Of a stretch of 64,000 nucleotides of DNA, positions 10,472 to 42,892 are shown piece after piece. A program made the position numbers and the translations under genes. The notes under the pieces are model-generated. The model saw nothing but the letters and a program-made list of their open reading frames with translations. It was not told the origin of the DNA and searched no databases. The DNA comes from a virus. How positions within the stretch are numbered: position 1 is the first letter of the stretch; each line of letters begins with the position of its first letter. The DNA lies in IMG/VR virus record IMGVR_UViG_3300050821_002957, positions 271,192 to 335,191 of that record. The stretch is one strand, 5' to 3'.

Positions 10472-11722
10472 CTAGAGACGCCCGGAACGGATCAGTTCGA
10501 GGGCCTGTTCTTTCGATTTGATGTGACCGGCAAGCTGCCCATTCTCGGCGGCGTCCAGGATTCGTTTGAAATCTGGTCCTGGCTTCATTCCAAGTGCCTT
10601 CAGATCATCCCCATTGACAAATTTTGCCGGATTCAAGTCTTCGGCCTTCATGTTGGCAAACATTTTTGACAACATCTGGAAAGCAGCGATATGGACGTGC
10701 TTGTCCTGAGCCTCTGTACGGCATCCATAGAGCTTCAAGGCGTCGGGGAACAGCTTCTCACGCATCAGGCGTTTCAACACGTCCAGCGTCGTTCCAGCCG
10801 TCACAGAACCGATTCTGGACTGAAGGTCGATGATGCCGGTAATCTGCTTGATCGTGTCGTTAAAAAACTTCAGACGTTTACCAATTTTTTCTGCGCTCCC
10901 TGAAGGCAACATGTACAACGCACCAGCCAAACCCAATGCTGGATTGATGTTGGTGCCGATGAACGAAAGTGTTGCCATCATCTGAGCGTAATCATACGGA
11001 GTCATGTGGGCAACTTCCGGCAGAACATGCTCTAAGATGCCGGTGTTGTTCATTCCCTTGATTGTCTTGTGAGCGTCATGACCCATTGCCTTGGTCAATT
11101 CCTCTGTTATGCGCTCTACGTCCATTTTCGCAATGTTCGGAGCGTGCGCCTGCATTGCCGCCAGTGTCTCTGGGTGGATCTCAAATCCGAGCTTCGCCTG
11201 AAAACGATGTGCCCGAAGCATCCGAAGATGATCCTGTGTAAAACGGTCGTTCGGATTGCCGACACATTTGATGAGGCCGTTTTTTGCATCGGCCTTGCCA
11301 CCATGAAAATCGATGATGTCACCAGTGAACGGGTCCATGTACATTGCATTGACGGTGAAGTCACGCCGGTTGGAATCTTGTTGTTGATCACGAGTGTATT
11401 CGACATCATCTGGACGCCGACCATCAGTGTACTTTCCATCTTTGCGGAATGTGGCAATGTCGATACCGTGGCAGACAACGACACCAAATGATTTTCCTAC
11501 GACACTTGTTCCTGGGAAAAGTTTGAGAACTTCTTCAGGTGTGGCGTCAGTTGCTACGTCAAAATCTTTTGGCTTGTGGCCGGTCAAAAAATCACGAACA
11601 CAACCGCCAGCGAGATAGCCGACAAAGCCGTGTCTGCGAAGCGTAGTGATTACGTCTTTGGCGTCGTCAAGCGTGCCATAGGTGGACTCCCGAAGGAGGG
11701 CGAATTGTGTAAATGAGAGCAC
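10472..11722 (-). CDS. cca: tRNA nucleotidyltransferase (CCA-adding enzyme)
   Basis: The pol-beta head motif of the CCA/poly(A) polymerase family is present (GYLAGGCVRDFLTGHKPKDFDVATDATPEEV). Length is 416 aa. Confidence 0.8.
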   Translation of the reverse strand: MLSFTQFALLRESTYGTLDDAKDVITTLRRHGFVGYLAGGCVRDFLTGHKPKDFDVATDATPEEVLKLFPGTSVVGKSFGVVVCHGIDIATFRKDGKYTDGRRPDDVEYTRDQQQDSNRRDFTVNAMYMDPFTGDIIDFHGGKADAKNGLIKCVGNPNDRFTQDHLRMLRAHRFQAKLGFEIHPETLAAMQAHAPNIAKMDVERITEELTKAMGHDAHKTIKGMNNTGILEHVLPEVAHMTPYDYAQMMATLSFIGTNINPALGLAGALYMLPSGSAEKIGKRLKFFNDTIKQITGIIDLQSRIGSVTAGTTLDVLKRLMREKLFPDALKLYGCRTEAQDKHVHIAAFQMLSKMFANMKAEDLNPAKFVNGDDLKALGMKPGPDFKRILDAAENGQLAGHIKSKEQALELIRSGRL

Positions 11723-19674: not shown

Positions 19675-19762
19675 TGGCTGGAGGAGCAGGACTCGAACCT
19701 GCATATGAGCTTTCGCTACGACACATTAACAGTGTGCTGCCTTACCGTTAGGCGACCCTCCA
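19675..19762 (-). tRNA. tRNA with a GTT (Asn) anticodon loop but a long, type-II-like variable arm; CCA encoded
   Basis: Hand fold: acceptor TGGAGGG/TCCTCCA, D-arm GCCT-AACGGTA-AGGC, anticodon loop CTGTTAA, an 18-nt variable region with an AGC-GAAA-GCT hairpin, T-arm GCAGG-TTCGAGT-CCTGC, then G and CCA. Confidence 0.45.
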
Positions 19763-22191: not shown

Positions 22192-22267
22192 TGGCCGCTG
22201 GTTCCAGTTACGCTCTGGACTCTTCTGTTCTTCAGACAGACGCTTTCACTAGATTAGCTTACCAGCG
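22192..22267 (-). tRNA. tRNA-Phe-like (anticodon loop CTGAAGA) with a non-canonical T-loop
   Basis: Acceptor CGCTGGT/ACCAGCG, then G and CCA. The anticodon arm is TCTGT-CTGAAGA-ACAGA. The T-arm is TCCAG-AGCGTAA-CTGGA and lacks the TTC motif. Confidence 0.45.
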
Positions 22268-22793: not shown

Positions 22794-23735
22794 AAATGTG
22801 TGTCGGTGTTAAGGCACACCGAGCAGGCCGCAAGATTTTGTTACTGATCAATACCTGCTAAGAACCAGGATGTTTAAGAACTTATCCTTGAGAAAGCTCC
22901 GTTGTAGGCGACACGGCTTCCCTGAGAGTCAGAGTTACTTCAGCTACTCCTGATGGTATGGTGACTCAGCTACCCCGACTTTTTAGTGATCGGCTCCATT
23001 CCGGTATTCGATTCGGCAACGACAGATTCCGACTCTGCAACGTTCTGCTTCTTTTCGATGAGAAGCAAAAATCATAAAAACTCAAAATGACCAGAGGACC
23101 CTCAGCAGTGAGCGCAGATCCCACGTTCGCATACAAGCGTCAATGACAAGTTTTATCCAACGAGCCATTGTCTTGTACGTTGGCTCACCGTCGAGTGCGC
23201 TATCCAGTTCGACACACTCACCTGCGGTTCTAATGACTTTCGTCTCCCGCTGGCCCTATCATCGCCTCACACTTCCGTGTGTTTCAACATCCTGGTCATC
23301 TCAAGGGCGACAGCCTTGCGGCCACGACACCCCACCAGCTTTTTTACTGTGTACTGATCACAGGGAGAGCTAGAACGACTTTCGCCGCCCCACACCTACC
23401 GCCACTGGTCGAGACTTCTACATGCGACCAGCCATGTCGCTAAAAGGGGCACTACGAGTAGATGCCCTCCACCACGTTGTTCTTTTACGTCCAACAACGA
23501 AACGACTTAGACCCATAACTCTGACCGGAAATCAGAACTATGATCCACACTCCCCGGTGGAAGCCGGGAAGACTTTGAATGTGAACTAATAATTGACAAG
23601 GGATTATAGCCCCGAAGGACCATTTCACCATTTGAAAGATAACCCTCATCTTCCGGCTCACATCACGAAATACGGCTGCTTGTCCTACCATTAGACGACC
23701 GGATCTGCCGACGCTTTACGCCATGAGAGCAGATT

Positions 23736-24060
23736 GGACTCCGACCGGGACTCGAACCCGGATTTCTCAGCTAGACGAATGACGGAGCATAGTGCGCTCT
23801 ACGTCGGAATTGGTGGATACACATGGGAATTGAACCCATAACCTTCTCGGTGCAAGCGAGTTGCTCTCCCAATTGAGCTAGTGACCCATAACTTTGTACC
23901 TCGAACAAATAAGTATCAGAGGGCTTGTCATTAGGAAAGATAACCCTCTAAATCCGGCTCGAAGCACTACAAAACTTTTGGTGGATCGCCAGGGATTTGA
24001 ACCCTGCTGTTATCCTCGGTGCAAGCGAGGCAAACACCCCAAGCATTTCCGCAACCCACA
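23736..24060 (-). pseudogene. three degenerate tRNA-like elements (tRNA pseudogenes or fragments)
   Basis: One element has a T-arm CCGGG-TTCGAGT-CCCGG with the D-arm GAGC/GCTC but an unfoldable anticodon region. A second has an Ala-like loop CTTGCAC with an acceptor of only 5 of 7 pairs. A third has a clean 3' half (anticodon arm, T-arm, GCGATCC-A-CCA) with no matching 5' acceptor strand. Confidence 0.35.
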
Positions 24061-24278
24061 TTTAAATAGCACGAACAAATAGCGGTAGAAGACTGATAGG
24101 AGACTGCATTTAACGCACCCTCGGATTGGATACCGATCAGATACGCTTCAAACTCCCCTCCTCAAAGTTACGGGCGTCTTTTACTACACGTACAACGAAC
24201 TGCTTTGTGCCCACCAAATACTGCCGGTGAACTTTGTCATGGTTAGGTAACCTTCCAACCAGCGGCTCGTGCTATGTC

Positions 24279-24340
24279 GAAACAGAACGAAACAGAACGA
24301 AACAGAACGAAACAGTGCTCAACGATGCGAAACAGTGCGT
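24279..24340. repeat. 10-bp tandem repeat (CGAAACAGAA)x3 followed by two CGAAACAGTG units
   Basis: Directly visible as cgaaacagaacgaaacagaacgaaacagaacgaaacagtgctcaacgatgcgaaacagtgcg. Confidence 0.8.
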
Positions 24341-24421
24341 TAGGTCAAAGATCGTATTCTTTATCTATACACGCTACAGTTTGCTTTCAATAGCGCCTTT
24401 GACTCTTTCAGTCTAACATCC

Positions 24422-24691
24422 TTAGTATGGGATGTCAAGTGCCACGAACATAATAATTTCATCTTCGTCTTTTTTGCGACGAGCAGCAGCTTCTTTCTCA
24501 GTCAACACCAGAGGAGACGGATTGCCTTCGACTTTGATATTCACTGATAAACCTTGCTGGAGCCATCCAGATACTTCATCGGGCGGCGTCTCGACAAATG
24601 CCTGATCACACGCCTTCTGAATTTCGACATTGCGTATTGCAGCAAGCGGTTTGCCGGATGGCGTCATGATGTCTACGTTACAAAGAAGCAT
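24422..24691 (-). CDS. hypothetical protein
   Basis: 89-aa ORF. Confidence 0.3.
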   Translation of the reverse strand: MLLCNVDIMTPSGKPLAAIRNVEIQKACDQAFVETPPDEVSGWLQQGLSVNIKVEGNPSPLVLTEKEAAARRKKDEDEIIMFVALDIPY

Positions 24692-25190: not shown

Positions 25191-26984
25191 CTACTCTTCG
25201 GTCTCTTCTGCGATCCCAGCACTTGAACCACGAATAAAATCCGTAACCAATGCTGGAACATTCGAGTCGAACCCAACGATGTCCAAAGAATACGGGTCCT
25301 TCGGATCTGCGATGGTAAATTGCGTAGAAACCATTCCCATCACGATCAGGCGCACATCATCCTGCCCACGATGCTTACGATACTGCTTGAGAGCCTGCGA
25401 CGGTTGCATTTGTCCAGCCCAAGTCTCATTATCCGTGATCACCATGAAAGCGTCTGCGTCGATGCCAGCCTTTTGAGCGTGAAGCATCGGTGCAGCACAA
25501 TCGGTTCCACCAGCCGACATGCGAGAGGTCTTTGCCAACGCAGTCTTCAGAGTGTCCTTTGCGGTGATGCCAATTTCCTGCATTCCCGTAGAAAATGCAT
25601 AGATAGCGTAATTCGGTTCCGTGCGAGCCACAACCATCGCCATTGCTGCGCCTGCTTGTGCTGCCGTGATTCCGGTGCCTTGGATGATGCTGGACGCCCA
25701 CGACATAGAACCAGAAACGTCCATGCCAATGTACGTAGCCTTACCAGTCGGAATTGCGTTTGCGAATGCCAAGTAGAACGTGTTCTCTAAAGCGTCCACA
25801 ATGGTCGGTACAACGGTCCAGGTCGCATCGCTGCGCTGACCGTGGCCTTGGCCGTAGGTGCCTTGTGCCAACAATACCTGGAGCGGGTGAATCTTGCTCT
25901 TCTTGACGTAGGCTTCATCGTTCAAACGAGACACGACGAGCTTCGATGCTGCCGACAGCGGCTTCAAGAGACCAATCTTCGACATGGTTCCAAGATTACG
26001 AACCATTGCAGTTACCGGCATCTTCTGAAGCAGAGCTTCCCAGACTTCCGGTTGCGTCTTAAACTGCGTCGGAATCATTTCGTGAGTCAATCCACCGTCG
26101 ATGATGCACTTTACGATAGTGCTCGTATCCGTCGCCTTCTTTGCGGTTTCATAGGCGGTGATCAACTTCGGTGCGTTCGATCCGGTCAACAAATCATAAG
26201 CGTTCTGATAGCGAGCACGCTGATTCTGAATTTCCGCAGAAGTCAGATCAGTCGTGCGATGGCTGTTGCCCTGCCACTTCTTGACAGAACGAGTCCAGTT
26301 CTGAGCAGCTTCGTTCAAGGCATCGAGACCACCGAAACGACCCCAAGCCAGCAAAGCACTCTTCATCGGATCAGTCGCCTTGACGTGTGCGAGGCTGACG
26401 AGATCACGAGTGGACCAGCCATCACGCTGTTGATACTTCGCCAACTGATAAGCCAGCGAATCTTCCGTGCGTTCGGTGTACCAGTTGCCGATTGCAGTCT
26501 TTACACCACGACCGTATCCACGCATGGAATCGAGGTACTCGTTGAAGTGGAACATGTGAGTACCGATACGTGCAACCTTGCTCAATTGCGACAGAGCATA
26601 AGCAGCAGTTTCAGCCGAACCAAAATTCGGTGTTGCGGCAACTGCCAGGGCAAACAATGCCGGATCGTTCTTCGGAGCACGGCCTGCTTGCGAAATGTTG
26701 ACGATCATATCGACCGTGCGCTTTCCATCCAACTGCAAGCACGCACGAACGTTCGCTGCGTTGTCTACAGTCATCTTCTTGGCAGATGCATAGTACGTCG
26801 GCGCATCGCTACCGAGAATCAAAAATCGTTCGAGCATCTGGAAGGGAGTGATGGTGAAGGTGTATCCACCAGCGTTGTTCTGCTTCATCTCTGCTTCCCG
26901 GCCCGGAATTGCCTGCGACTGTGATGTCTTCTTGCCGCTTAATACCGTTGCGTAATTGCTCTTTGCTGATCCTGCCTTTGCCAT
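25191..26984 (-). CDS. rsr: Ro60/Rsr orthologue (TROVE domain plus C-terminal vWA domain)
   Basis: The TROVE-like N-region (GGYTFTITPFQMLERFLILGSDAPTYY) is followed by the vWA MIDAS motif YIGMDVSGSM. A GGAGA SD sits 7 nt upstream of the ATG at 26984. The longer ORF start in the track is probably not used. Confidence 0.75.
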   Translation of the reverse strand: MAKAGSAKSNYATVLSGKKTSQSQAIPGREAEMKQNNAGGYTFTITPFQMLERFLILGSDAPTYYASAKKMTVDNAANVRACLQLDGKRTVDMIVNISQAGRAPKNDPALFALAVAATPNFGSAETAAYALSQLSKVARIGTHMFHFNEYLDSMRGYGRGVKTAIGNWYTERTEDSLAYQLAKYQQRDGWSTRDLVSLAHVKATDPMKSALLAWGRFGGLDALNEAAQNWTRSVKKWQGNSHRTTDLTSAEIQNQRARYQNAYDLLTGSNAPKLITAYETAKKATDTSTIVKCIIDGGLTHEMIPTQFKTQPEVWEALLQKMPVTAMVRNLGTMSKIGLLKPLSAASKLVVSRLNDEAYVKKSKIHPLQVLLAQGTYGQGHGQRSDATWTVVPTIVDALENTFYLAFANAIPTGKATYIGMDVSGSMSWASSIIQGTGITAAQAGAAMAMVVARTEPNYAIYAFSTGMQEIGITAKDTLKTALAKTSRMSAGGTDCAAPMLHAQKAGIDADAFMVITDNETWAGQMQPSQALKQYRKHRGQDDVRLIVMGMVSTQFTIADPKDPYSLDIVGFDSNVPALVTDFIRGSSAGIAEETEE

Positions 26985-27059
26985 ATCATTATCTCCTATG
27001 ATACCTAATTTTTTCGACTTCACCAGAATAACACATGCCTGATTGTTGTCAAGCATGTA

Positions 27060-33570: not shown

Positions 33571-34194
33571 TTACTTATTCAATTCTGCTTCATTGACATC
33601 ACAGGCTAAGTTGCTGGTCATATAGTTTCCACTGAGAGCCGATGACGTATAGGTGCTACGGACAGCGCTCATTGCATTCATCGCCATTCCAGTGTTGGCT
33701 ACGGTATAGTTGACGGCATTCGATACGCCAATATCCTTCGCCGCCGCCCATGCATCTTGATTGGCACCGAAGTAGACGAAGCCCCATTTGTTTTCATCCT
33801 GACGAATTTTGATCAACGTCTGGATTGCTGCACGCTTCCATTCTCTAGAAGCATTTTCACGTCCGTCTGTCATGATTGTAACCATGACATCAGTCTCACC
33901 CCTGGTAGCCGTAGAAATAGTTGCACCAATGGCATCGAACAATGCTGTCCCGCCGTCTGGGGAATATGTGTTTTTGTTAAGTTTTTGAACTTGTGCGAGT
34001 GGAACATCGGTGAATACCTTTTCCACTTTTTCTGAGAACTTGGTGAGAGATACAAGGTAGGTAACTTCACCTGCCTTCTCTTCTTTCGCCATCATTTGTA
34101 ACTGTTCATTGAATCCATCGATTACGACTTGTTGCTGATTGAGCATCGAGCCGGATTCGTCAAGGATAAACTTCTGCTTAATTGTCTTAGCCAT
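33571..34194 (-). CDS. stand-alone von Willebrand factor A (vWA) domain protein
   Basis: It has the MIDAS motif DESGSM and the segments GGTALFDAI and TDGRENAS. An AGGAGG SD lies 9 nt upstream of the ATG at 34194. Confidence 0.65.
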   Translation of the reverse strand: MAKTIKQKFILDESGSMLNQQQVVIDGFNEQLQMMAKEEKAGEVTYLVSLTKFSEKVEKVFTDVPLAQVQKLNKNTYSPDGGTALFDAIGATISTATRGETDVMVTIMTDGRENASREWKRAAIQTLIKIRQDENKWGFVYFGANQDAWAAAKDIGVSNAVNYTVANTGMAMNAMSAVRSTYTSSALSGNYMTSNLACDVNEAELNK

Positions 34195-34899
34195 TCTGTA
34201 GTGGCCTCCTGTATTGAATTGCAAAGTGACGTACTGCATTACCCGCACTTCTGTTTTATATAGACAGGAGATTTTAGACAAAAAGGTGGGATGAAAAAGA
34301 AAAAGCGCAGGGTCCGGGAATGACCATTGCGCCTCTTCTCGACGTTTTCTCCTTGTGCTACCACAGACGCACCGATTAAAGTGCCGGGGCGACGATCCCC
34401 AAAGGAGTTTGGCTTGCGCCTTAAACACGTCCAGAGATTCCCGCTCCAAACGCTTCCACTTCGGTGTAGGTCCGCAGTGGTCAGTTACGCCCTCTCGTCA
34501 AGCGAGTGCGCTCTATTTTTATCGATGTCCGAGACAGGAATTTAACCTGCATACTCCGAAGTTGGATGCTATTCTACGGTGCGGACATGCCCACGATCCG
34601 TTTCAGCTACTTTCGGACAAACTTTATACACGGTGGTGCATCTTATACTTCTTGGATCGAAACCCAAGCGGGGACGGAGTATGCCGCATCGAGAGCATTG
34701 AACGGTTGCAGGACGTTACTCCCTTGGCCTGTATTCTCGACTTCCTTCTGGTCCGTAAGCCCGACTACCAGAAACTCACCAAAACCTACTTGTCGGCGGG
34801 AGGGATTTTTCACTTGCTAAATCCAGTCCGCTTATCCGGTGGGACCTATCCTTTTCAGGGCCGACGAGAAATCCGGGGCGCTTTCGTTAAGCTATCGTT

Positions 34900-35700
34900 C
34901 ATGACCGACCTGGAGTGCCAGGATCTTCCCCGTATCGAAGAACGGAGCACACTGCGCTCGACGTTCAAACTAATTGGAAGAGAGGACTTCACTTATAGTT
35001 GTTCCAACACTCCGACGTTGCAACATCGAAGCCAAGCTGACTTTCCAGCTTCCGTAGTTGACTATCTAGAATTCGTCTAACTCTGCGGAGTCGAACCGCT
35101 CTCGCCCCTCAACGGGGCTGTGCTTCCGTTACACTAAGTGAGCAACTACGTGTCTTCTCTCTTCCAAAAATCCACGGTCACTGCTTGCCTATGGAACCCT
35201 CATCACATTCGACATCTCTGCGATTTGAGGTAGCACTTTCCAGGTGCCCTTTATACCCTTACCGACATGCAGCGACCACTAAAAATTCCGGCTGGACTGC
35301 GCTGAACGAGGCCGGTTCGCTATTTCCTGTTCAACTAGATGATGGTAGCTTACCACCATCACGTCGGCTCTTACGCCGCAAGATTGTGCGCTATTACACT
35401 TCACATGGTGTTTAGTCACAATCCAGCCTAATCGACGAACGGAGCATACTGCGCTCTACGTTCAAAATCCGTAGTGTCCTGCCATTAGACGACCGGAACG
35501 TTACGTTCCGAGAGGGACTCGAACCCCCATTTCCACTATCGGTGCCGTCCTGCCATTAGACGATTTTCAGAGGAGTCGAACCCCATTTGCACCTTCTCCG
35601 CATCTTGGAGGAAGCTACGTGAGTGCTTCACCTATGGGTTTACCAGTGCTCTTTCGAGTTGGTTTCCATGTCTGCCGTCGCACGTCGGTATCAGCCTTTC
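34900..35700 (-). pseudogene. array of degenerate tRNA-like fragments
   Basis: T-arm-like hairpins occur (GGGGG-TTCGAGT-CCCTC and GCGG-TTCGACT-CCGC). The motifs GTCGTCTAATGGCAGGAC and ACGTAGAGCGCAGTATGCTCCGT are shared with the 23.6-23.8 kb region. No complete cloverleaf could be folded by hand. Confidence 0.3.
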
Positions 35701-36106
35701 GGTCCTAACACTCCAAGAAAACTTAAATGTGATGGCCCTTCTACGCCAGTCCTTTTCACGTCTTCTCTAGATCGCAGGCTCTCTCGTCTCAAGGACCATC
35801 ACAAAACAAATTGGTAGCAGGTAACCCTTCGTGCCTTGAAGGATTTTACAGAGTGCTCGTCCAACCTTGCTACCAAAAAATCTACATTTGGCGAAAAACT
35901 GGACCATGCCATTTCCAGGCTTGGCGGCGACTCATCTTGTCTCGACTTCGGGATCGCCCTTCACCCTATCCCATGTTCTTCCGGTTTCTATCCCGGCCTG
36001 TTAAGCACCAAACAAAACTGCGACTTCCAGTCTTTGTAATCCTTTATGGTCGCTGTCCGCTCTGGCTGCTCTGCGCTGCCCTCTCAACAAACCCAGGATA
36101 ACAAAC

Positions 36107-36595
36107 CTACGCTTCCATGTCAATAGCTACATCATCTTTTTTTGAATTATTTTCGACGATCCAGGGAACCTCGATTTTGACCTGTTTTTCTCGTTCCAAC
36201 CAAAACCACGCCATCTTGGTAAGACCGTAGACATGGTTCGTAGGATCGCCACCATTGAGCCTACAGAGCGCTATAGCGAATCGATTTGCATGGACCCAGG
36301 CCCAACCCCATTTTTCGGCACCGGCAAGGTGGAGGGCATTGAGATCCTCAACAGGCCGATCCAAAATAACCAACATATTTTCGCATTGATCAGGTGGGAG
36401 AGAATGGATGCGCTCGCCACAAATAAATTTTGCATGTTCTGAAACTTCAACCGTGGGATCGTTCAAGAATTTAACAGCGGCTTCATTGTCTTCAGCGACA
36501 AACCCCCAAATACCGAAGCCATCGCAAACGGGACAAGTATCAGTTCCTCGAATGCGTCCCGAGCCTTTACATAAATCGCAGGGTCCATAGGTCAT
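36107..36595 (-). CDS. hypothetical protein with a DnaJ-type CxxCxGxG zinc-finger N-terminus
   Basis: The N-terminus carries CDLCKGSGRI and CPVCDGFGI. Confidence 0.35.
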   Translation of the reverse strand: MTYGPCDLCKGSGRIRGTDTCPVCDGFGIWGFVAEDNEAAVKFLNDPTVEVSEHAKFICGERIHSLPPDQCENMLVILDRPVEDLNALHLAGAEKWGWAWVHANRFAIALCRLNGGDPTNHVYGLTKMAWFWLEREKQVKIEVPWIVENNSKKDDVAIDMEA

Positions 36596-39255: not shown

Positions 39256-39557
39256 TATTCCTCGTCGTTAATATCTAGCCAATCGGGAGCTTCCCAGGTT
39301 CGGTGAATAACTCTGACGTAGATTACACCTTCTTCTTCGTCAAGATTCCATTCAAGATCATCGCCAACTTCTATGTTCAATTCACGAACTAATCCATCTG
39401 GCAGTGTCATCATTCCGTTCGGTTGTATGACACAGGCATATGACCTATTACCAAATCCAGAGTTCACCCAGACACCTAAAATGGGTGGTTCATCATTATC
39501 TTCAGTCGGCTCTTCGTCAAAGTCTTCCGGTTCTAGCTCTGCGTAATCTTCAGCCAT
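39255..39557 (-). CDS. AbrB/SpoVT (MazE-like) swapped-hairpin domain protein with an acidic N-terminus
   Basis: It contains MMTLPDGLVRELNIEVGDDLEW. Confidence 0.35.
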   Translation of the reverse strand: MAEDYAELEPEDFDEEPTEDNDEPPILGVWVNSGFGNRSYACVIQPNGMMTLPDGLVRELNIEVGDDLEWNLDEEEGVIYVRVIHRTWEAPDWLDINDEE

Positions 39558-40681
39558 TTTCTTCCTACCCGAATCACTGACATTTCTGGCAACGGTTCTT
39601 TGAGTCTTGGATCGATAACTACACTACCATTTACATTTACGGCTCCGCTCTTCACCAGACGACTGCCCTCTGAGACCGAAGATGCCAAACCCATCAGCAC
39701 CAAGACTCGATCCAGGCGTGTATTGACCGAATGAAAAACCGGAATTCTTACAACTGGAATATCGACCGGCGCTTCACGATCTGAAAATCTCTTTGTCCAT
39801 TCAATTTCAGCGGTGTCTGCTTTTGGTTCGTCATGTAACCAATGAACAATTCGCCATGCCAAATATTTCTTAGATTGAAATGGTTGAGGATGCCAGCCAC
39901 ATTTATTTGGAAACAGAACCTCTTGCCATTGGCGCATTACATCATCAGCAATCGACATAACTTTGCTGAACATTTCAAATGGTTCATCCAGCAAACCAAT
40001 GTGATTACCGAACGACTTGGACATCTTTCGACCGTCCGTACCAAACAACAAAGGAACCGTCGCAATAACCTGAGGTTTCTCACCACGATCATGCATGTAC
40101 ATCCGGCCCATCAGCATGTTGTAAAATTGATCGTTGCCGCCAAGTTCAATATCTACACCTTCTCTGAAAGAGTCATATGCCTGAAGCATGGGGTATAACA
40201 TCTCATGCATAAAGACCGGAGTGTTTGTTACCTTGCGTTCTTTAAAATCGTCACGGCCACCGATTTGACTGAGGGTGAAATGGGACATGAGACGAATTAC
40301 ATCTTGCATCTTCATCTCGTCAAACCATTCGGCATTCTTTTTGACGACGGTTTTGGTTCGATCCAAAATTTTGAAAGCCTGTGTCATATAGCTCCAGGCG
40401 TTCGTATTGATTTCATCGTCAGAAAGCGCAGGCCGAAGCTGATTGCGCCCGGTCGGATCACCAATCGATGCTGTGGTGTTGCCGACGATCATCACAATGG
40501 TGTGCCCAGCATCCTGAAATTCACGCATCTTTTTCAACAGCACAGCATGACCAAGATGTAGGTCTGGTGCTGTGGGATCGAATCCGGCTTTCACACGTAA
40601 CGGATGACCTGACGCAATAAGAGCATCAAACTCCTTTTCGTCGAGGAGTTGCGTAAACCCGGATTTGAGTGATTGTTGCAC
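39533..40681 (-). CDS. tyrS: tyrosyl-tRNA synthetase
   Basis: It has the class I HIGH motif in a TyrRS context (GFDPTAPDLHLGH), the KMSKS motif and a C-terminal S4-like domain (LVKSGAVNVNG). Confidence 0.85.
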   Translation of the reverse strand: MQQSLKSGFTQLLDEKEFDALIASGHPLRVKAGFDPTAPDLHLGHAVLLKKMREFQDAGHTIVMIVGNTTASIGDPTGRNQLRPALSDDEINTNAWSYMTQAFKILDRTKTVVKKNAEWFDEMKMQDVIRLMSHFTLSQIGGRDDFKERKVTNTPVFMHEMLYPMLQAYDSFREGVDIELGGNDQFYNMLMGRMYMHDRGEKPQVIATVPLLFGTDGRKMSKSFGNHIGLLDEPFEMFSKVMSIADDVMRQWQEVLFPNKCGWHPQPFQSKKYLAWRIVHWLHDEPKADTAEIEWTKRFSDREAPVDIPVVRIPVFHSVNTRLDRVLVLMGLASSVSEGSRLVKSGAVNVNGSVVIDPRLKEPLPEMSVIRVGRKWLKITQS

Positions 40682-41933: not shown

Positions 41934-42314
41934 TCAACAACAACCCACCCCACGATGATCATAACAATAGTCTTCCGGTTTTGGATTTAAAATATCATCC
42001 AAAACTGCCCAGGCCATCGCCACTCGGAACCAACAATGTTCGGCACCGATAATTTCCATGCTCTCAAATAGCGGCGGCGAGTCCAGACGAAAAGTAATCG
42101 CCACTCGGACAGGAACAAAGAAACGTCTTTTGTCAACCCCAAGTTCCGTTGCCAAATCCATCAAAGTTTTCTTGATGGTCTCGGTCGTGAAATCATCTTT
42201 GATGGATAAGAGCGCATTTTTGGTTCGCTCCAACACCAAAACAGATTCTTGGATTGTTCCTTTTTTGGCCGGGATCAACAACAACGGATCGTATTCTTTC
42301 AGACCGGCGCTCAT
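41934..42314 (-). CDS. stand-alone protein resembling the GluRS C-terminal subdomain (YqeY/GatB_Yqey-like)
   Basis: LATELGVDKRRFFVPVRVAITFRLDSPPLFESMEIIGAEH resembles the FMPLRVALTG...LLGKE segment of GluRS. Confidence 0.4.
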   Translation of the reverse strand: MSAGLKEYDPLLLIPAKKGTIQESVLVLERTKNALLSIKDDFTTETIKKTLMDLATELGVDKRRFFVPVRVAITFRLDSPPLFESMEIIGAEHCWFRVAMAWAVLDDILNPKPEDYCYDHRGVGCC

Positions 42315-42892
42315 AATACCAGCTTTCGTTCGATTTCTGCCGCCATACGAAGATCAGTAATTCGCACAATCGGCAACACCCAATTCTGTGTTTCAAGTTT
42401 GTACTTGTTCCGGCGAGCTTCTTCCCACTTGCTCAAATCGGTCACGTTGTCAATCCGGTCACAACCTTTGATGCGGCGAGGACGAGCATCGGCGTGTGTC
42501 AACGTCATATAATATTCATCGTCGGGCCGTTTTGCACGAGCTACCAATTCGCCTGTAATTGGATTGAACGACGGCAATTCTTTGGACAATACGATAATAT
42601 CTTCGTACATTTCTTGCCCGAACAGATTCACTATTACCGAAGTTGGAACATAACAATCTTCGACGATATCATGCCCAAGTCCCAACGCTACATGCATAGC
42701 GTCGGCGTAACCATAAGTCATCGCAACGTCGAATGCAACACGGCGAACGTGCTCAAAATACCGTTCACCAGTCAGACGGCGGCTCTGCTTACGATGCGCT
42801 TCCTTGACCAACCAATACATGCGCTGGACATACGACAGTTCATCAGCATTCAAATACTCAGCCATCGTATTGAAAAATTCTTTACGGTTCAT
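42311..42892 (-). CDS. HD-domain phosphohydrolase (RelA/SpoT-type (p)ppGpp hydrolase-like)
   Basis: The HD motif context is RYFEHVRRVAFDV...HVALGLGHDIVED. The promoter TTGACA-N18-TAGCGT lies upstream. Confidence 0.6.
   Translation of the reverse strand: MNRKEFFNTMAEYLNADELSYVQRMYWLVKEAHRKQSRRLTGERYFEHVRRVAFDVAMTYGYADAMHVALGLGHDIVEDCYVPTSVIVNLFGQEMYEDIIVLSKELPSFNPITGELVARAKRPDDEYYMTLTHADARPRRIKGCDRIDNVTDLSKWEEARRNKYKLETQNWVLPIVRITDLRMAAEIERKLVL

Follow-up and report, generated by a model that had tools for sequence, protein, structure and literature searches.

A putative array of tRNA-mimic and other structured RNAs in the genome of a likely jumbo phage encoding Ro60

In a 64,000-nucleotide (nt) stretch of viral DNA (positions 271,192 to 335,191 of the IMG/VR record IMGVR_UViG_3300050821_002957; hereafter the window, whose own numbering is used throughout), a 1.9-kb gap between two genes was analyzed. 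This gap is most likely a conserved locus for RNAs, neither junk nor a decayed gene, and it is probably a single noncoding transcription unit that yields the precursor of several small RNAs mimicking transfer RNA (tRNA) in a jumbo phage encoding Ro60. The region is conserved without coding signal, folds into secondary structures that identify the minus strand as the transcribed one, has defined boundaries on both sides and has been shuffled module by module among relatives. The alternative explanations weighed below are all much less probable. Judging from sequence, the window belongs to a jumbo phage; proteins identical to both flanking genes are recorded on contigs of 0.2-1 Mb (up to 404 kb).

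The genes flanking the region all lie on the minus strand. Upstream, a gene for a CxxC-type protein of 162 amino acids (aa) (36107-36595) has its stop at 36107, and downstream, a vWA-domain gene starts with the ATG at 34194, preceded by a GGAGG ribosome-binding site; the true gap is therefore 34195-36106. The longest minus-strand open reading frame (ORF) within it does not exceed 56 aa, and the plus-strand ORFs, of 241 (34355-35080), 104 and 96 aa, had no match in Pfam. The DNA of the window is identical to part of a 178,905-nt Logan contig on which no genes were called inside the gap, and no match to the gap was obtained by blastn against 50,697 phage records. The original prediction, made from the letters of the window, that 34200-36100 holds no credible ORF was borne out, as 34195-36106 is without a credible gene.

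Relatives were collected via the vWA and 162-aa proteins and via a 248-aa protein found at this locus in some of them. Homologous noncoding DNA was present in the closer relatives L095 (vWA protein 82% identical), L096 (83%) and L097/L098 (78%). In L093 (77%), the common part comprises only the first ~220 nt after the 162-aa gene, corresponding to module A of the array described below. The distant relatives L001, L090, L099 and L100 (58-71%) carry protein genes in this slot and no array, with the 162-aa homologue abutting the vWA gene in L001; the array is also absent from L101. In comparison with relatives, substitutions in the vWA gene were distributed 30/19/108 over the three codon positions (p = 3e-20), and a third-position excess was also observed for the 162-aa gene (p = 1e-7 to 2e-8). 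No such bias was seen in modules A, E, F, X, H, I and J, whose substitutions were evenly spread over the phases (p = 0.31-0.97). Modules H and I were 93-95% and 89-91% identical, respectively, compared to 73-75% for the flanking genes in those relatives.

These data bear on the least probable of the alternatives, namely that the gap holds a real plus-strand gene (the 241-aa ORF), a degraded gene or a mobile element such as a homing endonuclease or the remnant of a group I/II intron. An open frame of 241 codons is unusual for random sequence, and the slot is an insertion hot spot: in close relatives, it is occupied by a conserved, oppositely oriented gene of 248 aa that separates the array terminator from the vWA gene (L095 1260-2006, L093 6175-6921, L096 1705-2451, L097 2653-3399); the window lacks this gene. 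However, the 241-aa ORF showed no similarity to the 248-aa protein, has no Pfam match and was not called on the source contig, while the conserved blocks beneath it are free of codon periodicity. Further, since the homologous DNA is rearranged in relatives, the plus-strand ORFs of the gap cannot be conserved. An Infernal scan against Rfam, proposed along with the original prediction, detected no group I/II intron, tmRNA or RNase P in the gap, either at gathering thresholds or at E<=10, and left weak, partial tRNA and YrlA matches only. As no gene is interrupted by the region either, the earlier suggestion of an intron remnant was not supported. A conserved protein frame across the interval, which according to the original prediction would have refuted it, was found neither by substitution periodicity nor by Pfam, nor by comparison with the 248-aa protein.

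Instead of codons, base pairing is maintained. The alignment of module J (three sequences) comprises 88 predicted pairs with 93.6% of cells paired, and changes on both sides occurred in 21 pairs, compared to 8.4 +/- 2.3 in shuffles and 1-4 when the partners were slid. Within this module, the J1 alignment fold covaries at UCC/GGA, CUC/GAG and CCC/GGG, and one J2 hairpin still pairs in L095 and L096 despite near-total replacement of its sequence. In module X, a GCCCC/GGGGC stem is replaced by GGCCC/GGGCC in relatives, and the hairpin that follows it changes from AAGCUG/CAGCUU to AAGUGG/CCACUU in L095 and L096 through two compensatory double changes (CUG/CAG to UGG/CCA). A recurrent 27-nt hairpin shows GAAUG/CAUUC in L097 and L095 in place of GAACG/CGUUC. 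Compensatory changes were also found in 3 of the 37 pairs of module E (with 0 broken cells), in 4 of the 29 pairs of module F and, by RNAalifold, in 7 pairs of the A/A2 alignment.

The strand on which these structures operate could be determined from G-U pairs, which numbered 38 (J) and 28 (X) on the minus strand and 2 and 0 on the plus strand. Since G-U pairs are almost all on the minus strand, the structures belong to RNA made from the gene strand and not to DNA hairpins. This argues against a further explanation, a very improbable one, in which the hairpins act at the DNA level (as an origin or packaging site) or in cis, within the 5' untranslated region of the vWA gene or the 3' untranslated region of the 162-aa gene. 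Such a role would suit a region that lies between two co-oriented genes and whose promoter overlaps the end of the upstream one. Apart from the G-U count (66 vs 2 between strands), it is contradicted by the terminator, which separates the array from a vWA gene that retains its own conserved upstream block, by L001, L090, L099 and L100, which have the same flanking genes without such a region, and by the cumulative GC skew, which has no turning point at the gap.

Both ends of the putative transcription unit carry recognizable signals. A sigma70-like promoter at 36123-36095 (minus strand; TTGACA, a 17-nt spacer and TATCCT, with a TG upstream of the -10 element) fits the consensus at 10 of 12 positions and extends into the final codons of the 162-aa gene. 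The minus strand of the window has no second copy of exactly this arrangement; both hexamers are kept in L093 and L097, where the spacer between them differs. At the other end (34340-34294, minus), an extended G+C-rich hairpin is directly followed by the U tract UUUUUCUUUUU, as in an intrinsic terminator (-23 kcal/mol, z = -4.1). Seven of its 17 pairs show compensatory changes, and owing to an interruption of its stem, it escaped a simple terminator scanner. The array's homology with relatives stops exactly at this terminator. The next ~100 nt (34195-34293, minus) contain the promoter and 5' leader of the vWA gene; they lie outside the RNA array, set its lower boundary and belong to the vWA block, with which they are conserved in L093, L095 and L096. 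Taken together with the aperiodic modules, the compensatory changes and the restriction of G-U pairs to one strand, the conservation of promoter and terminator supports the proposal, already made in the original prediction, that the region encodes one or more structured RNAs.

Whether there is one such RNA or several is addressed by the architecture of the region. A single giant structured RNA, i.e., one ~1.8-kb unit in the manner of GOLLD or ROOL, would account for one promoter and one terminator serving the whole region, as a search for a repeated internal promoter motif found none and no convincing internal terminators were detected within the array; several hairpins resembling T-loops could in addition provide long-range tertiary contacts. 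We nevertheless consider it unlikely. Folded alone, most of the defined modules close on their own terminal stem in minimum free energy (MFE) predictions, module order and content vary among relatives, L093 has module A only, and small protein genes lie between the modules of relatives. Neither GOLLD nor ROOL, OLE or HEARO was matched in the gap at E<=10.

Indeed, the common blocks are differently ordered in each of L095, L096 and L097, and the region is therefore a mosaic of cassettes. Comparison with related phages, suggested with the original prediction, hence revealed conserved modules in altered order. An 84-aa gene was called between RNA modules in L096 (694-948), and L097 has a putative short, hydrophobic-looking ORF between modules at ~1741-1907 that was not called as a gene; such inserted small genes imply that the arrays of relatives also accept protein-coding cassettes. 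In L097, a 43-nt block inside the array (1308-1350) is 95% identical to 23506-23464 of the window, which belongs to a second RNA locus at 23.5 kb, indicating that the two RNA loci exchange cassettes. As for the 248-aa gene, many homologues share ~45-50% identity with it, and some carry the names of bacterial genomes (e.g. Frankia and Gemmata records).

The tRNA-like character of the array is most evident from its repeated motifs. The T-arm motif GGTTCGANTCC occurs in 7 copies in the window, all on the minus strand, where 0.19 would be expected; three copies are in the gap (35087, 35515 and 35572), none of them within a detectable tRNA. The T-arm mimics claimed from the letters alone are thus present. 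The D-arm GTCTAATGGNAGGAC is found at 35476 and 35547 in the gap and at 23682 in the 23.7-kb cluster, and the 27-nt hairpin has three copies in the window compared to 0.01 expected, its motif lying at 34942, 35439 and 23782. The common D-arm and hairpin motif substantiate the claimed sharing of motifs with the 23.7-kb cluster.

Two adjacent modules on the minus strand, TD1 (35541-35593) and TD2 (35469-35542), combine these arms in a permuted order. TD2 consists of the closing strands CCGaUAGU/ACUACGG, GGAAAU, the T-arm GGGGG-UUCGAGU-CCCUC, a linker and the D-arm GUCUAAUGGCAGGAC, with an acceptor-like hairpin of 7 bp (CGGAACG-UAA-CGUUCCG) between T-arm and linker; every arm is present in the MFE structure. 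TD1, read from its sequence and MFE structure and included in the family alignment A6, has the closing stem GGUGC/GCACC and T- and D-arms like those of TD2, with an 8-nt linker replacing the acceptor hairpin. This layout is that of a circularly permuted tRNA with a loop capping the acceptor stem and with an open anticodon stem. In the permuted-module family (11 sequences), 89% of cells are paired and all 5/5 acceptor-like and 5/5 closing-stem pairs covary, with a score of 0.56 compared to 0.17 in shuffles.

Two further modules resemble degenerate cloverleaves. Module X (35053-35150, minus; z = -2.6) is a tRNA mimic with five arms. CGUAGUU/AACUACG forms its acceptor-like stem of 7 bp, and it has a D-like arm, an anticodon-like arm whose loop measures 5 nt here and 8 nt in relatives, and a T-arm, with one more hairpin placed ahead of the 3' acceptor strand; for its L096 homologue, ARAGORN called a 'tRNA-???' with a 4-nt anticodon. 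Module J1 (34526-34619, minus; z = -2.2) combines a 7-bp acceptor-like stem and a T-arm with a D-arm that carries a hairpin insert and an anticodon-like stem of 3 bp whose loop has 5-6 nt. As their anticodon-like loops are of 5-8 nt and variable among relatives, X and J1 cannot decode. In line with these structures, ARAGORN found no tRNA in the gap, and no element there forms a complete cloverleaf, with a 7-nt anticodon loop and either >= 29 bits or an ARAGORN call. Rfam gave no match within the gap when the whole window was searched at gathering thresholds. At E<=10, it returned two sub-threshold tRNA matches of 19.6 and 18.7 bits (the latter a weak one to J1, the gap's other partial tRNA match being that to TD2) and a partial YrlA match in TD2 (model positions 30-81, 17.8 bits; threshold 69).

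The permuted layout is not confined to this phage. A pattern scan of IMG/VR returned mostly junctions of tandem tRNAs, plus true permuted T-arm/hairpin/D-arm modules in unrelated viral contigs (L088 8842-8919, L048 6282-6362, L023 10967-11041, L086 6123-6199, L028 1860-1937 and L083 11316-11393). In L028 and L083, the module adjoins a Ro60 gene. L095 and L096 have permuted versions with ~70-nt arms. The modules of the unrelated contigs have the same D-arm as here, usually reside in tRNA clusters and all score below the Rfam threshold for YrlA. For the 27-nt hairpin, pattern scans found no copy in IMG/VR (two patterns) or in GTDB genomes.

T- and D-arm sequences without complete tRNAs, together with the clustering of the real tRNA genes elsewhere in the window, are what one would expect of a decayed tRNA gene island that has drifted neutrally and is now without function, as the original prediction had also suggested. 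This explanation is even less probable than DNA-level hairpins. The tRNA-like pieces are under selection, because module H exceeds the identity of the flanking genes (93-95% vs 73-75%) and stems covary, including stems unrelated to tRNA; besides, the layout is organized, promoter and terminator are conserved and the permuted arrangement recurs in unrelated viral contigs.

The remaining modules, all on the minus strand and given here from promoter to terminator, extend the array beyond tRNA mimicry. Module A (35886-36013) is a 128-nt multi-hairpin RNA with the closing pair GUUUGGUG/CGCCAAAU, whose MFE structure closes its own ends; it is conserved in L093 and L097 with substitutions that lack 3-periodicity. 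It is followed by A2 (35813-35874), a 62-nt hairpin closed by GGUAGCA/UGCUACC that aligns with L097 and has a closed MFE structure, and by module B (35728-35803), a 76-nt hairpin with a 13-bp closing stem that was recognized as inverted repeat I5 and by MFE. Module C (35594-35727; 134 nt) is confined to this phage lineage, with its 3' end alone matching L096 1-36, and its structure is an MFE prediction. After TD1 and TD2 comes copy 2 of the 27-nt punctuation hairpin (35437-35463; GAACG-UA-GAGC-loop-GCUC-CGUUC; repeat D1; z = -2.6). Module E (35290-35428) is a 139-nt multi-branch RNA with a 12-bp closing stem and an L096 homologue of 81% identity, and module F (35177-35276) is a 100-nt RNA closed by GUCGCUGC/GCAGUGAC with homologues in L095 and L097; neither shows codon periodicity.

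Downstream of X, two small hairpins (35013-35051; AAGCUGG...CAGCUU and CGAUGU-UGCA-ACGUCG) precede copy 1 of the 27-nt hairpin (34940-34966; z = -3.3) and module H2 (34874-34932), a 59-nt RNA with a computed fold of three hairpins closed by CGGGG/CCCCG. H2 and this hairpin copy form the most conserved element of the array (93-95% identical to L096 and L097), and an Rfam search of module H/I alone at E<=10 gave no match to H2. Module I (34789-34868) is an 80-nt RNA closed by UCGUCGG/CCGACAA, its identity to L097 being that given above. Module K (34627-34787; 161 nt) contains the T-arm-like hairpin CUUGG-GUUUCGAU-CCAAG and was defined by reading the sequence and by MFE. Finally, module J2 (34341-34525) is a multi-hairpin domain of ~185 nt, corresponding to helices 7-13 of the module J alignment fold. 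Modules A, A2, E, F, H, I and J2 and the 27-nt hairpin fit no described RNA family.

These observations can be combined into the following mechanism. From the sigma70-type promoter, which sits where the 162-aa gene ends, a ~1.8-kb precursor (36123-34294, minus) would be transcribed as far as the hairpin and U tract of the terminator, shortly before the promoter of the vWA gene itself. The transcript would consist of ~15 modules, apparently independent folds joined by short U-rich linkers, of which four would mimic tRNA (TD1 and TD2 as permuted forms, X and J1 as degenerate cloverleaves). The tRNA-like elements and linkers may then serve as sites at which host enzymes of tRNA processing and decay (RNase P, Z and E) cut the precursor and so release stable RNAs of ~30-190 nt (most 50-140 nt). 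We infer this cutting from the analogy with YrlA/YrlB precursors, phage tRNA clusters and tRNA punctuation. Once released, the mimics could engage proteins that recognize the elbow or acceptor of tRNA, among them the CCA-adding enzyme encoded by the phage itself, and a possible joint action with the phage Ro60 and with Y-like stems adjacent to its gene, rsr, might redirect host RNA metabolism.

Several points weigh against this interpretation. Transcription, the start site and any processing are inferred from features of the DNA. The independent related arrays number three (L095, L096 and L097/L098), and covariation was scored on the same alignments that were used to predict the structures. 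No homologue was retrieved for modules B, C and K, except for the 3' end of C. Sliding-window folding energies over the gap were weakly better than those of shuffles; for the whole segments, the MFE of the TD region, like that of the 23.7-kb region, gave z near 0. The invariance of T-loop and D-arm in alignment A6 is partly due to the search pattern by which its members were collected, and the covariance model of the permuted module (R1) also gives 40-57 bits to tandem-tRNA junctions, which makes it unusable for counting true modules. With regard to Ro60, the motif GNCGAAN0-1G has a single copy in the gap, at 35213 inside module F and not beside TD1 or TD2. TD1 and TD2 are closed by stems of 5-8 bp and lack a long terminal stem; 8.3 kb and many genes separate the gap modules from rsr, which is located downstream of them. 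L093, moreover, has Ro60 and yet only module A at this locus, so that a Ro60 partnership of the gap RNAs is not established.

A direct partnership of the gap RNAs with Ro60 is, on these grounds, possible but doubtful. Near rsr itself, the phage does appear to have recognizable RNAs of the Ro60-binding type. The Ro60/Rsr orthologue (25191-27056, minus) has TROVE and vWA_Ro60 domains. Among its cultured homologues, the closest (43% identity) is a Ro-like protein from Sinorhizobium phage Phosso, whose genome measures 469 kb; near the gene for that protein, model R1 found nothing. Between tRNA genes 1.2-1.6 kb downstream of rsr, two Y-RNA-like bulged stems are present on the minus strand (23970-23893 and ~23664-23578), both with the motif GAGCCGGA-N4-GAGGGUUAUCUUUC. 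The first folds with z = -4.7 and, at 23966-23898, matches RF01656, the family of the nematode sbRNAs (homologues of Y RNAs), with 34.6 bits (threshold 38; E = 4.7e-5), the YrlB match being weak; the second copy is at 23659-23634. A bulged terminal stem with GGUCCGA-like and GGGUUAUC motifs, as in RF01656 and YrlB (RF02565), is absent from the gap. A paralogue of the permuted module, with the order T-arm, long hairpin and D-arm and a longer acceptor-like arm, lies at 23672-23774 (minus), 1.4 kb downstream of rsr. The gap and the 23.7-kb locus are linked by the 27-nt hairpin and by the exchanged block. The paralogue is preceded by a copy of that hairpin (23782-23804, minus), directly after tRNA-Ala.

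The closest known counterpart of TD2 and the 23672-23774 paralogue is YrlA (RF02553), whose tRNA-like domain has a permuted layout described by Chen et al. 2014 (PMC4201824). All share a stem-closed order of variable region, T-arm, acceptor-like stem-loop and D-arm, in a genome that encodes Ro60, and the derivation of several such RNAs from one precursor is a known arrangement for YrlA/YrlB of M. smegmatis. The gap modules differ from YrlA in that they lack the long terminal stem with GNCGAAN0-1G (Chen 2014), which is reflected in the 17.8 vs 69 bits, and in that they form a tandem pair, one member without acceptor hairpin, within a 1.8-kb array of unrelated modules 8.3 kb from rsr; adjacency to rsr, typical of YrlA, is seen for the paralogue and not for the gap modules. 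The Thermus phage phiLo encodes Ro60 along with the Y-RNA-like Yrl1 and Yrl2, and a hijack of host PNPase by the phage has been proposed (NAR 2025, PMC12135203). Here, too, a phage-encoded Ro60 is accompanied by small structured RNAs encoded by the phage. However, Yrl1 and Yrl2, which were found via a CGAA motif, are encoded immediately upstream of Ro60 in phiLo; the gap described here is distal and far larger, and its tRNA-like modules have no adjacent CGAA-type motif.

Outside the Ro60 context, long structured noncoding RNAs such as GOLLD and ROOL also occur in phage genomes, often near tRNA genes, but they have no sequence or structure match here, and the array consists of modules in variable order instead of forming a single conserved fold. 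The tRNA cluster of phage T4 also encodes stable non-tRNA RNAs (species 1 and 2, rnaC and rnaD), small RNAs of unknown function that are co-transcribed with tRNA-shaped elements and freed by tRNA-processing enzymes. The T4 cluster, however, has functional tRNAs; the array has none, contains many more non-tRNA modules and is shuffled among relatives. In mitochondrial tRNA punctuation and in the MALAT1 mascRNA (RF01684), tRNA-shaped elements within longer transcripts recruit RNase P and RNase Z. These systems are eukaryotic or organellar, and cleavage in the array is presumed; matches to mascRNA were weak, at chance level and restricted to the 23.7-kb locus.

As phage Ro60 with Y-like RNAs is already known (PMC4201824, PMC12135203, PMC7824862), what appears to be new is an array of 1.9 kb, distant from rsr, whose tandem permuted tRNA-like modules have no Ro-binding stem, its combination with several unclassified conserved RNA modules, and the evolution of such an array through cassette shuffling. 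A bolder extension of the precursor model, which we put forward as speculative and rather unlikely in its entirety, is that the array is a battery of cassettes for independently folding small RNAs that are shuffled, gained and lost. The mimics, devoid of anticodons and Ro60-binding stems, would serve as decoys or adaptors, and the other cassettes (H, E, F, A, I and J2) would represent new RNA classes. Targets of the decoys could be, for example, tRNA-targeting defence nucleases, RNase P, the CCA-adding enzyme or the Ro60-PNPase decay machinery.

Returning to the precursor of small tRNA-mimic RNAs, a jumbo phage would devote 1.9 kb to exchangeable tRNA mimics and structured RNAs beyond its rsr-proximal Y RNAs. 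Although Ro60 and Y-like RNAs of phages are known, their role in infection is not; the array supplies short RNAs for such work, with TD1/TD2 and H as obvious candidates, and candidate binding partners are Ro60, RNase P, the CCA-adding enzyme and tRNA-directed defence nucleases. It also yields several candidate new RNA families and suggests that 'ORF-poor' stretches of giant phages can be dense in another kind of gene.

A large toolkit for translation and RNA metabolism surrounds the RNA loci. On the minus strand, the window encodes the CCA-adding enzyme (10472-11722), a tyrosyl-tRNA synthetase (39533-40681), a stand-alone class-I anticodon-binding domain (41934-42314) and an HD-domain protein (42311-42892; weak match to PF13328 HD_4). 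ClpP, a ClpX-like ATPase, a macro domain protein and an ADP-ribosylglycohydrolase are encoded as well. The tRNA callers disagreed on several minus-strand genes, namely an 88-nt tRNA-Asn (19675-19762), an element at 22195-22267 found by Rfam only (39.7 bits) and a 79-nt tRNA-Ala (23979-24057) called by ARAGORN only; some of these disputed tRNAs may be further tRNA mimics. The 24-kb RNA locus is ORF-free over 23374-24421, with a sigma70-like TTGACA-17-TAGACT near 24438 at its start, and at 24278-24315 it contains a perfect 10-nt tandem repeat, CGAAACAGAA, in 3.8 copies.

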